A DNA stretch of 64,000 nt, from NCBI RefSeq assembly GCF_030384885.1, contig NZ_CP128613.1; one strand, given 5' to 3'. Origin of the DNA: Escherichia coli (lineage in GTDB: Bacteria > Pseudomonadota > Gammaproteobacteria > Enterobacterales > Enterobacteriaceae). The number at the start of each line of letters is the position of its first letter. The stretch's first letter is position 1. This document shows positions 14,578-22,540 of the stretch, one piece after another. Made by a program: the position numbers and the translations under genes. The notes beneath the pieces were generated by a model. It saw only the letters and a list, made by a program, of their open reading frames with translations. It was not told where the DNA came from and searched no databases.

Positions 14578-14717
14578 AAGGAGTCCCTCCGCACTGACTG
14601 AAACAGTGCAGAAATGTCTTCAGGCGTGGCGAAGCCTTACCTGAAGGTAATAAAGCTGAGCTGGGACGTTAAAACGTCACGGCCTTACGCATCCGGTAAC
14701 GCCGTGAAAAGACGGGC
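14578..14717 (-). promoter_or_regulatory. mgtA 5-prime leader (Mg2+/proline-responsive attenuator region) between mgtL and mgtA
   Basis: Position between the mgtL stop and the mgtA start; established leader architecture. Confidence 0.7.
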
Positions 14718-17490: not shown

Positions 17491-19146
17491 ATGACGAATC
17501 TTCCCCACTGGTGGCAAAACGGCGTTATCTACCAGATTTATCCCAAGAGTTTTCAGGACACCACGGGCAGCGGTACCGGCGATTTACGTGGCGTTATCCA
17601 ACGCCTGGACTATCTGCATCAACTGGGCGTCGATGCTATCTGGCTAACCCCCTTTTATGTCTCTCCCCAGGTCGATAACGGATACGACGTAGCGAACTAT
17701 ACGGCGATAGATCCCACTTACGGTACGCTGGACGATTTTGACGAAATGGTGACGCAGGCGAAATCACGCGGCATTCGTATCATTCTCGATATGGTGTTTA
17801 ATCATACTTCTACCCAACATGCCTGGTTTCGCGAGGCGCTGAGCAAAGAAAGCCCTTACCGTCAGTTTTATATCTGGCGCGATGGTGAACCAGAAACGCC
17901 ACCGAATAACTGGCGTTCAAAATTTGGCGGTAGTGCGTGGCGCTGGCATGCGGAAAGCGAACAGTACTATTTGCATCTCTTTGCACCAGAACAGGCGGAT
18001 CTCAACTGGGAGAATTCGGCGGTACGCGCCGAGCTGAAAAAAGTCTGTGAGTTCTGGGCCGATCGCGGGGTCGACGGGTTGCGCCTGGATGTGGTGAATC
18101 TGATCTCCAAAGACCCGCGTTTCCCTGAAGACCTGGATGGCGACGGACGTCGCTTCTACACCGACGGGCCACGAGCACACGAGTTTTTGCACGAGATGAA
18201 CCGCGATGTGTTTACGCCTCGCGGGTTAATGACCGTGGGTGAAATGTCCTCCACTAGCCTTGAGCATTGCCAGCGATACGCGGCTCTGACAGGCAGTGAA
18301 TTGTCGATGACCTTTAATTTTCATCACCTGAAGGTCGATTATCCCGGTGGTGAAAAATGGACGCTGGCTAAACCTGACTTTGTGGCGTTGAAAGCATTGT
18401 TCCGCCACTGGCAACAAGGAATGCACAACGTGGCATGGAATGCCTTGTTCTGGTGTAACCACGATCAGCCGCGCATTGTTTCTCGTTTTGGTGATGAAGG
18501 GGACTACCGCGAACCTGCGGCAAAAATGCTGGCGATGGTGCTGCATGGCATGCAGGGAACGCCATATATCTATCAGGGCGAAGAGATTGGCATGACTAAT
18601 CCACATTTCACGCGCATTACTGACTATCGCGACGTGGAGAGCCTCAATATGTTTGCCGAACTGCGCAACGATGGGCGTGACGCCGACGAGTTATTGGCAA
18701 TCCTCGCCAGTAAATCCCGTGACAATAGTCGCACGCCAATGCAATGGAGCAACGGCGATAATGCCGGGTTTACAACGGGTGAACCGTGGATTGGCCTGGG
18801 CGATAACTATCAAGAAATCAACGTAGAAGCTGCGCTGGCCGATGAGTCCTCGGTGTTTTACACCTACCAAAAGTTAATCGCACTGCGTAAGCAAGAAGCC
18901 GTCCTGACATGGGGCAATTACCAGGATCTGCTGCCAGACAGCCCTGTATTGTGGTGCTATCGCCGTGAATGGAAGGGGCAAACCTTGCTGGTCATTGCCA
19001 ACCTTAGCCGTGAGATCCAACCCTGGCAGCCAGGGCAAATGCGCGGAAACTGGCAGCTTGTGATGCATAACTACGAAGAAGCCTCAGCACAACCCTGTGC
19101 CATGACTTTACGGCCTTTTGAGGCCGTCTGGTGGTTACAGAAGTAA
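17491..19146 (+). CDS. treC: Trehalose-6-phosphate hydrolase
   Basis: 551 aa from MTNLPHWWQNGVIYQIYPKSF...; GH13 alpha-amylase family motifs. Confidence 0.95.
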   Translation: MTNLPHWWQNGVIYQIYPKSFQDTTGSGTGDLRGVIQRLDYLHQLGVDAIWLTPFYVSPQVDNGYDVANYTAIDPTYGTLDDFDEMVTQAKSRGIRIILDMVFNHTSTQHAWFREALSKESPYRQFYIWRDGEPETPPNNWRSKFGGSAWRWHAESEQYYLHLFAPEQADLNWENSAVRAELKKVCEFWADRGVDGLRLDVVNLISKDPRFPEDLDGDGRRFYTDGPRAHEFLHEMNRDVFTPRGLMTVGEMSSTSLEHCQRYAALTGSELSMTFNFHHLKVDYPGGEKWTLAKPDFVALKALFRHWQQGMHNVAWNALFWCNHDQPRIVSRFGDEGDYREPAAKMLAMVLHGMQGTPYIYQGEEIGMTNPHFTRITDYRDVESLNMFAELRNDGRDADELLAILASKSRDNSRTPMQWSNGDNAGFTTGEPWIGLGDNYQEINVEAALADESSVFYTYQKLIALRKQEAVLTWGNYQDLLPDSPVLWCYRREWKGQTLLVIANLSREIQPWQPGQMRGNWQLVMHNYEEASAQPCAMTLRPFEAVWWLQK

Positions 19147-19158
19147 GTATCCGCTAAG

Positions 19159-19190
19159 CCCCGGTAATACTGGTCATTCCGGGGTTTTGC
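19159..19190 (+). terminator. Intrinsic terminator after treC
   Basis: ccccgg...ccgggg hairpin followed by TTTTG. Confidence 0.75.
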
Positions 19191-19290
19191 CTTTCAGTAT
19201 GTTGTTTTTGTTGATTTTATAATCAAAAAATTCATTAAAAAATTTACATAACGCTGTAGCGCCCGTCATCCGTACGCTCTGCTTTTTACT

Positions 19291-19304
19291 TTGAGCTACA
19301 TCAA
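19291..19304. promoter_or_regulatory. Candidate FNR site upstream of nrdD
   Basis: TTGAG-ctac-ATCAA, one mismatch from the FNR consensus TTGAT-N4-ATCAA. Confidence 0.5.
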
Positions 19305-19329
19305 AAAAAGTTCAAACATCCTTGATGCA

Positions 19330-19380
19330 AAGCACTATATATAGACTTTAAAATGCGCCCCGACCCAATATGTTGTATTA
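19330..19380. promoter_or_regulatory. Candidate tandem NrdR boxes in the nrdDG promoter
   Basis: Two AT-rich palindromic boxes (gcactatatatagac and cccaatatgttgtat) spaced about 32 bp apart. Confidence 0.5.
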
Positions 19381-19539
19381 ATCGACTATAATTGCTACTA
19401 CAGCTCCCCACGAAAAAGGTGCGGCGTTGTGGATAAGCGGATGGCGATTGCGGAAAGCACCGGAAAACGAAACGAAAAAACCGGAAAACGCCTTTCCCAA
19501 TTTCTGTGGATAACCTGTTCTTAAAAATATGGAGCGATC

Positions 19540-21678
19540 ATGACACCGCATGTGATGAAACGAGACGGCTGCAAAGTGCCGTTTAAATCAGAGCGCATCA
19601 AAGAAGCGATTCTGCGTGCAGCTAAAGCAGCGGAAGTCGATGATGCAGATTATTGCGCCACTGTTGCCGCGGTTGTCAGCGAGCAGATGCAGGGCCGCAG
19701 CCAGGTGGATATCAACGAGATCCAGACCGCCGTTGAAAACCAGCTGATGTCGGGTCCATACAAACAACTGGCTCGTGCTTACATCGAGTACCGTCACGAT
19801 CGCGATATTGAACGTGAAAAACGCGGTCGCCTGAATCAGGAGATCCGTGGTCTGGTCGAGCAGACCAACGCCTCGTTGCTCAACGAAAACGCCAACAAAG
19901 ACAGCAAGGTGATTCCAACCCAGCGCGACCTGCTGGCCGGGATTGTGGCTAAACACTATGCACGTCAGCACCTGCTGCCGCGTGACGTGGTGCAGGCGCA
20001 TGAGCGTGGCGATATTCACTATCACGATCTCGATTACTCGCCGTTCTTCCCGATGTTCAACTGCATGTTGATCGACCTGAAAGGTATGCTGACCCAGGGC
20101 TTTAAGATGGGTAACGCCGAGATTGAACCACCGAAGTCGATCTCTACGGCAACCGCGGTAACAGCGCAGATTATTGCTCAGGTCGCCAGTCATATTTATG
20201 GCGGCACCACCATTAACCGTATCGATGAAGTGCTGGCACCGTTTGTCACCGCCAGCTACAACAAACACCGCAAGACCGCAGAAGAGTGGAACATCCCGGA
20301 CGCCGAAGGTTACGCTAACTCTCGTACCATCAAAGAGTGCTACGATGCCTTCCAGTCGCTGGAGTACGAAGTAAACACCCTGCACACCGCCAACGGTCAA
20401 ACACCGTTTGTGACCTTTGGTTTTGGTCTGGGCACCAGCTGGGAGTCTCGCCTGATTCAGGAGTCTATCCTGCGTAACCGTATCGCGGGCCTCGGTAAAA
20501 ACCGTAAAACTGCGGTGTTCCCGAAACTGGTGTTTGCGATTCGCGATGGCCTGAACCATAAAAAAGGCGATCCGAACTACGACATCAAACAGCTGGCGCT
20601 GGAGTGCGCAAGCAAGCGCATGTATCCAGATATCCTGAACTACGATCAGGTAGTGAAAGTCACCGGTTCGTTTAAAACCCCGATGGGCTGCCGCAGCTTC
20701 CTCGGCGTGTGGGAAAATGAAAACGGCGAACAGATCCACGATGGTCGTAACAACCTCGGCGTGATCAGCCTGAACCTGCCGCGCATTGCGCTGGAAGCGA
20801 AAGGCGATGAGGCCACCTTCTGGAAGCTGCTGGATGAACGTCTGGTGCTGGCACGTAAGGCGCTGATGACCCGTATCGCTCGTCTCGAAGGCGTTAAAGC
20901 GCGCGTGGCCCCGATCCTCTATATGGAAGGTGCTTGTGGCGTTCGTCTGAATGCTGACGACGACGTTTCTGAAATCTTCAAAAACGGTCGTGCGTCTATT
21001 TCGCTGGGTTACATCGGCATCCACGAAACCATTAACGCGCTGTTTGGCGGCGAGCATGTGTATGACAACGAGCAGCTGCGCGCGAAAGGTATCGCCATTG
21101 TTGAACGTCTGCGTCAGGCGGTGGATCAGTGGAAAGAAGAAACGGGTTACGGTTTTAGCCTTTACAGCACGCCAAGTGAAAACCTGTGCGACCGCTTCTG
21201 CCGTCTCGATACCGCGGAGTTTGGCGTGGTGCCGGGCGTGACTGATAAAGGTTACTACACCAACAGTTTCCACCTCGATGTGGAGAAGAAGGTGAACCCG
21301 TACGACAAGATCGACTTTGAAGCGCCTTACCCGCCGCTGGCGAACGGTGGCTTCATTTGCTACGGCGAATATCCAAACATTCAGCACAACCTGAAGGCGC
21401 TGGAAGATGTCTGGGATTACAGCTATCAGCATGTACCGTATTACGGCACCAATACGCCGATTGATGAGTGTTACGAGTGTGGTTTTACCGGTGAGTTTGA
21501 GTGCACCAGTAAAGGCTTCACCTGCCCGAAATGTGGTAACCATGACGCCTCCCGTGTGTCGGTGACTCGCCGCGTGTGCGGATATTTAGGTAGCCCGGAT
21601 GCGCGTCCGTTTAACGCTGGTAAGCAGGAAGAAGTTAAGCGCCGCGTTAAACATTTGGGAAATGGGCAGATCGGTTAA
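19540..21678 (+). CDS. nrdD: Anaerobic ribonucleoside-triphosphate reductase
   Basis: 712-aa ORF with N-terminal ATP-cone and C-terminal glycyl-radical region and zinc cysteines (CYECGF...CPKCG). Confidence 0.97.
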   Translation: MTPHVMKRDGCKVPFKSERIKEAILRAAKAAEVDDADYCATVAAVVSEQMQGRSQVDINEIQTAVENQLMSGPYKQLARAYIEYRHDRDIEREKRGRLNQEIRGLVEQTNASLLNENANKDSKVIPTQRDLLAGIVAKHYARQHLLPRDVVQAHERGDIHYHDLDYSPFFPMFNCMLIDLKGMLTQGFKMGNAEIEPPKSISTATAVTAQIIAQVASHIYGGTTINRIDEVLAPFVTASYNKHRKTAEEWNIPDAEGYANSRTIKECYDAFQSLEYEVNTLHTANGQTPFVTFGFGLGTSWESRLIQESILRNRIAGLGKNRKTAVFPKLVFAIRDGLNHKKGDPNYDIKQLALECASKRMYPDILNYDQVVKVTGSFKTPMGCRSFLGVWENENGEQIHDGRNNLGVISLNLPRIALEAKGDEATFWKLLDERLVLARKALMTRIARLEGVKARVAPILYMEGACGVRLNADDDVSEIFKNGRASISLGYIGIHETINALFGGEHVYDNEQLRAKGIAIVERLRQAVDQWKEETGYGFSLYSTPSENLCDRFCRLDTAEFGVVPGVTDKGYYTNSFHLDVEKKVNPYDKIDFEAPYPPLANGGFICYGEYPNIQHNLKALEDVWDYSYQHVPYYGTNTPIDECYECGFTGEFECTSKGFTCPKCGNHDASRVSVTRRVCGYLGSPDARPFNAGKQEEVKRRVKHLGNGQIG

Positions 21679-21699
21679 TCTTCACTCTGCGCTAAGCAA

Positions 21700-21832
21700 A
21701 TGCCGGATGTGGCGTAAACGCCTTATCCGGCCTACATTTGGCAACGGCTGTAGGCCTGATAAGACGCAACAGCGTCGCATCAGGCGTTGATTGCCTGATA
21801 CCGCCTACACGCGGACTGATAAGCCAGGCGAA
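21700..21832. repeat. BIME/REP cluster between nrdD and nrdG
   Basis: Multiple REP units (gccggatgtggcgtaaacgccttatccggcctaca..., taggcctgataagacgc...gcgtcgcatcaggc). Confidence 0.85.
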
Positions 21833-21835
21833 ATA

Positions 21836-22300
21836 ATGAATTATCATCAGTACTATCCTGTCGACATCGTCAACGGCCCCGGCACTCGCTGCACCCTGTT
21901 TGTCTCCGGGTGTGTTCATGAATGCCCCGGTTGCTATAACAAAAGCACCTGGCGGGTAAATTCCGGTCAGCCATTTACCAAAGCAATGGAAGACCAGATC
22001 ATTAACGATCTGAATGACACCCGCATCAAACGCCAGGGTATTTCCCTCTCCGGCGGCGATCCGCTGCATCCGCAAAACGTGCCGGATATTCTAAAACTGG
22101 TACAACGCATCCGCGCCGAATGTCCGGGTAAAGACATCTGGGTGTGGACAGGCTATAAATTCGACGAACTCAACGCTGCGCAAATGCAGGTTGTTGATTT
22201 GATTAACGTGCTGGTCGACGGCAAATTTATGCAGGATCTAAAAGACCCTTCCCTGATCTGGCGCGGCAGCAGCAATCAGGTGGTGCATCATTTGCGTTAG
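21836..22300 (+). CDS. nrdG: Anaerobic ribonucleotide reductase activating protein (radical SAM)
   Basis: 154 aa from MNYHQYYPVDIVNGPGTRC... with the CxxxCxxC radical-SAM cluster motif. Confidence 0.93.
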   Translation: MNYHQYYPVDIVNGPGTRCTLFVSGCVHECPGCYNKSTWRVNSGQPFTKAMEDQIINDLNDTRIKRQGISLSGGDPLHPQNVPDILKLVQRIRAECPGKDIWVWTGYKFDELNAAQMQVVDLINVLVDGKFMQDLKDPSLIWRGSSNQVVHHLR

Positions 22301-22540
22301 TCACTCATCCAGCCGGACCTTAATGGCCTCCTGTGGGTTGGCCAGTCGTTCCCTGACAGTGCGTAACAAGGCTTCTTCACTATCACTGACAGTGAGCGTT
22401 TTTACCGGCATTCGTCCATTTTCCGCAACGTACTGAAACAGCAGCCGCACTGCTTCAGTAGGCGTGATATTTAATTTTTCCAGCACCGCATAAGCCTCAT
22501 TTTTCAGTTTGTCATCCAGGCGGACGTTAAGTGTGGCCAT
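22301..22540 (-). CDS. RelB/DinJ-family ribbon-helix-helix antitoxin-like protein (no adjacent toxin gene)
   Basis: 79 aa; MATLNVRLDDKLKNEAYAVLEKL...TPTEAVRLLFQYVAENGRMP closely parallels RelB; GGAGG RBS; convergent with nrdG. Confidence 0.6.
   Translation of the reverse strand: MATLNVRLDDKLKNEAYAVLEKLNITPTEAVRLLFQYVAENGRMPVKTLTVSDSEEALLRTVRERLANPQEAIKVRLDE

Follow-up and report, generated by a model that had tools for sequence, protein, structure and literature searches.

The treC–nrdD intergenic region of Escherichia coli: a composite FNR/NrdR promoter followed by a long leader with conserved DnaA boxes

The treC–nrdD locus and its variation among strains

We analyzed the region upstream of nrdD within a 64-kb stretch of E. 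coli DNA, hereafter the window. The gap between treC and nrdD, put at nearly 400 bp in an earlier note on this DNA, measures 393 bp: treC ends at 19146, the nrdD ATG begins at 19540, and positions 19147–19539 constitute the intergenic region. By the RefSeq annotation of a 100% identical strain, nrdD occupies 19540–21678 and nrdG 21836–22300, both on the plus strand, and the regulated operon spans 19540–22300. A Shine-Dalgarno GGAG together with the nrdD ATG lies at 19531–19542 (plus strand; conservation 0.87, computed, like the other site conservation values below, across 68 genera-level Enterobacteriaceae sequences). At the opposite end, directly after the treC stop codon (19144–19146), the treC intrinsic terminator at 19159–19188 (plus strand) folds as a CCCCGG/CCGGGG stem followed by UUUU, with a hairpin energy of −17.8 kcal/mol in an RNA fold of 19140–19205. 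A simple terminator scan overlooked this hairpin because its loop exceeds 8 nt, and folding confirmed it; with a conservation of 0.23, it is not conserved outside Escherichia. Beyond the operon, immediately after the nrdG stop, the identical strain's annotation places a RelB/DinJ-family antitoxin gene (79 aa; 22301–22540, minus strand), for which no toxin partner is listed in the annotated stretch viewed.

The locus is nearly universal in the species. A 501-bp query (19100–19600) matched in 5,425 of 5,426 complete E. coli genomes and was 100% identical in strain 2013C-4282, where it is likewise placed between treC and nrdD. K-12 MG1655 has an equally long gap (393 bp, 4462661–4463053), and an aligned 431-bp stretch (19130–19560) is 98% identical to it without indels. 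Eighteen substitutions separate the two sequences in this alignment, 14 of them between the treC stop and 19251. All FNR, NrdR and DnaA sites, the −10 and the Shine-Dalgarno sequence are base-for-base the same in the window and K-12; a single SNP falls between the FNR sites and two fall in the linker between the NrdR boxes, one of the latter coinciding with the inferred +1 (G in the window, A in K-12). The promoter-plus-leader segment (19280–19540) is at least 95% identical in 5,420 E. coli genomes. As separate observations, the cluster of 14 K-12 differences at 19147–19251 corresponds to the treC terminator and an AT-rich element, and the 60-bp segment 19196–19255 is far more polymorphic within E. 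coli than the adjoining promoter and leader.

We conclude, with a probability of roughly 0.9, that this is the known and well-studied region controlling E. coli nrdDG, in which a composite promoter precedes an extended 5′ UTR that is bound by protein. Published experiments on near-identical sequence show that FNR binds and activates, that NrdR binds and that DnaA occupies its sites. These binding data come from K-12, another strain than that of the window, in which the sites themselves are identical. The anaerobic control by FNR and dNTP-responsive control by NrdR that the earlier note expected of nrdDG match these published experiments.

FNR and NrdR sites around the nrdD promoter

The TTGAG-N4-ATCAA motif previously described as FNR-like is present at 19291–19304 (TTGAGCTACATCAA, no strand assigned) and is the published, essential FNR site-2, centered at −64.5. 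A further site, which the note had not recorded, is FNR site-1 at 19322–19335 (TTGATGCAAAGCAC, again without strand), centered at −33.5 and overlapping NrdR box 1 by 4 bp. In a scan against the consensus TTGAT-N4-ATCAA, site-2 carries one mismatch and site-1 two. Seven consensus sites with at most one mismatch occur in the 64-kb window; by sequence alone site-2 is not rare, and a consensus match is a necessary, not a sufficient, feature of an FNR site. Site-2 is credible because of its position, its conservation and the published binding data. Its right half, ATCAA, is conserved at 0.97 and site-1 at 0.92, with most other genera having TTGATGCAAATCAC, a one-mismatch version, at the latter. The two sites lie 31 bp apart, or three helical turns, and therefore on the same face of the helix.

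Experiments on K-12 assign distinct roles to the two sites. In the account of Roca 2008 given in PMC10245656, the nrdDG sites are centered at −64.5 (site-2) and −33.5 (site-1); by EMSA and mutagenesis, site-2 binds more tightly and is both necessary and sufficient to activate the promoter, and site-1 is a weaker auxiliary that only boosts expression. A 54-bp K-12 nrdDG oligonucleotide, TACTTTGAGCTACATCAAAAAAAGCTCAAACATCCTTGATGCAAAGCACTATAT, binds two FNR dimers as judged by EMSA and SAXS (PMC10245656), and differs from the window only at the one SNP between the sites. FNR ChIP-seq places a peak at nrdD with a 15.68-bit PWM match on TTGATGTAGCTCAA (PMC3688515), which is the reverse complement of site-2. 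A supplementary expression table of the same study gives values of 0.36 for nrdD and 0.27 for nrdG (PMC3688515), which, listed without a visible column header, we read as fnr-mutant/wild-type ratios. Both −64.5 and −33.5 are non-canonical, unusual positions for FNR activation.

Two other FNR-related features were noted elsewhere in the window. An exact consensus, TTGATTGCAATCAA, occurs at 5229–5242 as the sole perfect match; in the identical strain it falls within an annotated minus-strand CDS for a 581-aa hypothetical protein, located between argF and tabA, and a promoter role is improbable. Another peak in the FNR ChIP-seq supplement is assigned to treR/mgtA (K-12 v2 coordinates 4465528–4465559; PMC3688515). 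By approximate coordinate conversion this peak maps to ~14650–14700, on the mgtL/treR intergenic side, near which FNR-like matches are weak only.

From the FNR centers as they are cited in PMC10245656, the transcription start would fall at 19362 on the plus strand (19297.5 + 64.5; 19328.5 + 33.5), equivalent to K-12 4462838 (NC_000913.3), which would give a 178-nt 5′ UTR. The supplementary tables of an E. coli/Klebsiella TSS study contained nothing for an nrdD start. A TAAAAT or TAGAAT is kept at 19349–19354 with a conservation of 0.95, and the window's TAAAAT (plus strand) is the putative −10 hexamer of the nrdD promoter, fitting the derived start. A sigma-70 consensus scan of the region returned no promoter, as expected of an activator-dependent promoter with a poor −35.

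Two NrdR boxes bracket this −10 and the derived +1 and thus overlap the core promoter upstream of nrdDG. Box 1 (GCACTATATATAGACT, 19332–19347; conservation 0.80) and box 2 (ACCCAATATGTTGTAT, 19363–19378, +2 to +17; conservation 0.86), neither assigned a strand, are the same as those in a K-12 probe bound by NrdR, and box 2 begins one base past the derived +1. An NrdR operator consists of two 16-bp boxes, acaCwAtATaTwGtgt, spaced 31–32 bp start to start; here each box has three mismatches to this consensus, and the two are 31 bp apart with a 15-bp linker. The two NrdR-like palindromes of the earlier note are the published boxes 1 and 2, at a measured spacing of 31 bp in place of its approximate 32 bp. 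They are also the sole matches with at most three mismatches in the 64 kb (0.69 expected), which, together with their 31-bp spacing, puts the pair far beyond chance. The K-12 57-bp nrdDG probe is bound by NrdR-ATP/dATP with a KD of about 150–160 nM, and the 15-bp linker is stated there too (PMC12176259). Relative to the window, this probe has only the two linker SNPs. In Salmonella, the overlap of an NrdR box with an FNR site has been discussed, and NrdR-box mutation derepresses a lacZ fusion (PMC2892513).

Just downstream of box 2, a block at 19379–19392 (TAATCGACTATAAT, plus strand, +18 to +31) is conserved at 0.76, before conservation falls to 0.39 in the next 35 bp. Its TAnnnT core is present in all 32 representative sequences inspected, and TAnnAT in most. 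The block might serve as the −10 of a second promoter, act as a sigma-70 pause signal or be some other site. The first of these options would make TATAAT at 19387–19392 the −10 of a second or alternative promoter starting near 19399–19400, with FNR site-1 at about −71.5 and site-2 at about −102.5 (class I) and NrdR box 2 over the −35 region. The conservation of the block and its invariant core favor such a promoter, as does the position of site-1, since −71.5 is the canonical activation position at CRP/FNR class I promoters, unlike −33.5 or −64.5. We nevertheless consider it unlikely: TAAAAT at 19349–19354 is conserved better still (0.95), the only −35 candidate at 17-bp spacing (CCCAAT) is not usable, the promoter scan returned nothing, and the published start, as cited in PMC10245656, sets the FNR sites at −33.5 and −64.5.

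Upstream of the promoter lies an AT-rich element at 19203–19250 (no strand assigned; conservation 0.60), centered at about −145 from the derived start. It contains the TTGAT-N6-ATCAA palindrome that the earlier note had listed beside the FNR-like motif, and which is indeed an exact match at 19211–19226 (TTGATTTTATAATCAA); it does not, however, belong to the nrdDG system. The case for a functional FNR or other CRP/FNR-family site aiding anaerobic control is that the sequence forms a perfect 5-N6-5 inverted repeat of FNR-type half-sites within a moderately conserved element upstream of the promoter. Yet FNR needs an N4 spacing, the center lies ~143 bp upstream of the start, and K-12, in which the regulation was worked out, reads the non-palindromic TTGATTTTTCAACCAG at this position. 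The exact 60-bp allele carrying the palindrome is found in 98 of 5,426 E. coli genomes only, 3,600 genomes being just 90–95% identical over this segment. A perfect 5-N6-5 repeat occurs in only 10 of the 68 Enterobacteriaceae sequences; the pattern conserved among them, in 46 of 68, is a G-N13-C frame around an A/T core. The PWM match of the nrdD ChIP-seq peak, moreover, is site-2 (PMC3688515). The palindrome is also weak by itself, because the window holds a second exact match at 36778 and six matches with at most one mismatch (2.8 expected). By spacing, absence from K-12 and rarity among E. coli we reject it as an FNR/CRP-type site, a role we regard as highly improbable; it arose by accident in a minority allele of a polymorphic, AT-rich stretch. 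The G-N13-C pattern itself may be a nucleoid-protein site, resembling those of the Fis, IHF or H-NS type. From its sequence, which offers only a 5-bp A/U-rich stem and no U-tract on either strand, the palindrome was likewise rejected as an RNA hairpin or terminator.

DnaA boxes in the transcribed leader

The long leader of the earlier note corresponds to the 178-nt 5′ UTR. From +32 up to the ribosome-binding region, nothing in it is conserved except two perfect DnaA boxes, which the note had not described. The defining 9-mer of a DnaA box, TTATCCACA (or TTATNCACA), occurs in perfect form just twice in the 64-kb window, both times in this UTR and on the minus strand. The distal box (TTATCCACA, 19428–19436, +67 to +75) is conserved at 0.95 with unconserved flanks, and adjacent sequence, on inspection, holds no partner box above 4/9 matches. 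The proximal site is a double box at 19505–19524 (+144 to +163, minus strand): a perfect TTATCCACA at 19505–19513 (+144 to +152; conservation 0.97), a 2-bp spacer, and TTAAGAACA at 19516–19524 (conservation 0.68). It thus has the double-box feature of a second box 2–3 bp away.

DnaA occupies this leader in vivo. DnaA ChIP-seq from 2024 reports a peak at nrdD with 62-fold enrichment at coordinate 4462739 and the double box tTTAAGAACAggTTATCCACAg, and counts only 32 perfect DnaA boxes in the whole E. coli genome (PMC11317965); according to that paper, DnaA sites upstream of nrdD had been predicted earlier still. The listed double box is the same sequence as our proximal pair. If the peak follows NC_000913.3 numbering, it falls at about window position 19461, between the boxes; the paper's label is NC_000913.2.

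The paired arrangement extends across the order. We fetched 80 enterobacterial nrdD loci and compared 81 leaders, of which 70 have two perfect DnaA boxes no more than 200 bp from the start codon. Tandem minus-strand boxes 76–79 bp apart make up 59 of these pairs; the other 11 (from Yersinia, Hafnia, Edwardsiella, Limnobaculum, Dickeya and Serratia) combine an inverted distal box with a spacing of 49–57 bp. The leaders together hold 144 perfect boxes in 16.2 kb, versus 3 in 522 kb of flanking DNA. Conservation is correspondingly local: the boxes reach 0.95–0.97, versus 0.38–0.39 for the 68 bp that separate the two and for the 35 bp ahead of the pair.

Several lineages depart from the E. coli layout. 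At loci L070–L082 of our sample (Yersinia, Hafnia, Edwardsiella, Dickeya, Serratia and others), nrdD has a shorter leader, the inverted distal box lies on the plus strand directly after NrdR box 2, and only one FNR-like site is evident. The Acerihabitans locus (L081) has no DnaA-like box, and the Sodalis locus (L077) has a single one-mismatch box, far upstream.

One alternative to gene regulation is that the leader boxes act mainly as a DnaA-titration or nucleotide-state site of the datA/DARS kind. The 62-fold ChIP enrichment is approximately in the DARS2 range and well above that at nrdA, dnaA and rpoH (PMC11317965), and the spacing of the boxes is kept where the sequence between them is not, both of which would suit titration. 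Across Enterobacterales, however, the pair always lies between the NrdR boxes and the Shine-Dalgarno sequence, even where its orientation and spacing have changed, and this fixed tie to the nrdD leader favors a gene-linked role. The leader, furthermore, offers 2–3 boxes only, in contrast to the larger DnaA-box clusters with IHF sites that make up datA and DARS2, and NrdD protein is altered in DnaA-state mutants. We therefore judge a mainly titrating function to be quite unlikely.

A cis-acting RNA element in the leader, such as a riboswitch, attenuator or thermosensor controlling nrdD, would be another way to account for a 5′ UTR that is unusually long for E. coli. An Rfam scan of the leader at permissive E-values returned chance-level matches only (best E = 1.4), the minimum free energy of its fold was not distinguishable from that of shuffled sequences (z = −1.54), and RNAalifold found zero consensus pairs across 25 genera. 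The ORF list, with a lower limit of 40 codons, contained no leader ORF, and conservation outside the DnaA boxes, the +18 to +31 block and the Shine-Dalgarno region is only ~0.38. All of this argues strongly against an RNA element, which we consider very improbable; since none was found, the best explanation for so long a leader lies in its DNA, whose conserved content between +32 and the ribosome-binding region is the DnaA boxes.

The leader also contains a direct repeat, two exact 11-bp copies of ACCGGAAAACG at 19459–19469 and 19480–19490 (plus strand, 21-bp period), situated in the stretch that separates the DnaA boxes. The repeat is present in E. coli and E. albertii and absent from other genera; confined to Escherichia, in a region conserved at 0.38, it was rejected as a conserved site and is probably of no general importance.

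Proposed regulation and comparison with known systems

We propose the following model for nrdDG. The treC terminator is followed by the AT-rich upstream element and then the promoter. FNR activation and NrdR repression at this overlapping promoter are established in the literature. Under anoxia, [4Fe-4S]-FNR dimers bind the sites at −64.5 and −33.5, with site-2 required and site-1 boosting. The NrdR boxes, 31 bp apart, bracket the putative −10 and the derived transcription start and, because box 1 overlaps FNR site-1, repressor and activator compete there. The transcript would run from about 19362 with a 178-nt leader in which the perfect DnaA boxes begin at +67 and +144, the latter belonging to the double box that closely precedes the ribosome-binding site. 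DnaA on the leader in vivo would most likely lower nrdDG expression by blocking elongating RNA polymerase. Through such a block, the status of the replication initiator would be linked to anaerobic dNTP synthesis, as DnaA does at nrdAB.

For the last step, we infer both the direction of DnaA control and the roadblock mechanism. Precedent exists at asnC and guaB, where DnaA bound in transcribed DNA acts as a roadblock. By proteomics, mutants of DARS2 and others with lowered DnaA-ATP have more NrdD, as do cells with very low DnaAcos levels, consistent with DnaA repression. NrdD is also up, however, on DnaAcos induction and on hyper-replication or hyper-initiation; this could come about through NrdR derepression from dNTP depletion, and the proteomic evidence is therefore ambiguous. 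More tentatively, and with the odds somewhat against it, the box pair, which in Enterobacteriaceae is a tandem with a fixed spacing of about 77 bp, may form a conserved elongation checkpoint, at which anaerobic dNTP production would be gated by initiator status independently of oxygen and dATP sensing. The blocker at such a checkpoint would probably be DnaA-ATP, located between the FNR/NrdR promoter and the ribosome-binding site and possibly bridging both boxes.

The region as such holds no new biology: for K-12, mapping, mutagenesis and in vitro binding of the nrdDG FNR and NrdR sites had all been published, and a 2024 study reported that DnaA occupies the leader. The present analysis establishes where the motifs lie, how rare they are in the window and how well they are conserved. 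It adds that the leader DnaA boxes are conserved order-wide at a fixed spacing, which is unpublished, as is the proposed roadblock mechanism. It also demotes the N6 palindrome and points to a pair of small conserved features, namely the G-N13-C element in the AT-rich stretch and the block at +18 to +31. With its order-wide pair, nrdDG is well suited for testing whether DnaA regulates as a roadblock bound to a leader.

The closest known system is the K-12 nrdDG promoter region, which is the same locus (393 bp; 98% identity over 431 bp) and differs in having TTGATTTTTCAACCAG in place of the window's perfect palindrome TTGATTTTATAATCAA. Earlier work on it is reportedly that of Boston and Atlung (2003) and Torrents et al. 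(2007). Further studies are those of Roca et al. 2008, as cited in PMC10245656, Rozman Grinberg et al. 2025, and the DnaA ChIP-seq of 2024 (PMC11317965).

E. coli nrdAB, an RNR operon as well, resembles nrdDG in its NrdR box pairs about 31 bp apart and its DnaA double box with 2–3 bp spacing; its promoter features comprise the DnaA double box, NrdR boxes, Fis and IciA. At nrdAB, the DnaA boxes lie upstream of the promoter, and the DnaA-ATP level switches between activation and repression. At nrdDG, in contrast, both perfect boxes lie in the transcribed leader, and the oxygen response comes from FNR.

The asnC terminator region and guaB share with nrdD a consensus DnaA box downstream of the promoter, where bound DnaA can stop RNA polymerase. 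They differ in that the roadblock at nrdD is only predicted, and in that nrdD has a pair of boxes whose ~77-bp spacing is conserved; in the 2024 DnaA ChIP-seq, the box at guaB was unoccupied (PMC11317965).

Finally, nrdDG of Salmonella Typhimurium (Panosa et al. 2010, PMC2892513) likewise has FNR boxes and an NrdR box 1 overlapping one FNR site, and two S. enterica loci in our sample (L008, L010) have the same motif positions as the window. It differs in an FNR site-1 nearer the consensus, TTGATGCAAATCAC, and in an upstream AT-rich element that reads TTGAATAATTAATCAG.
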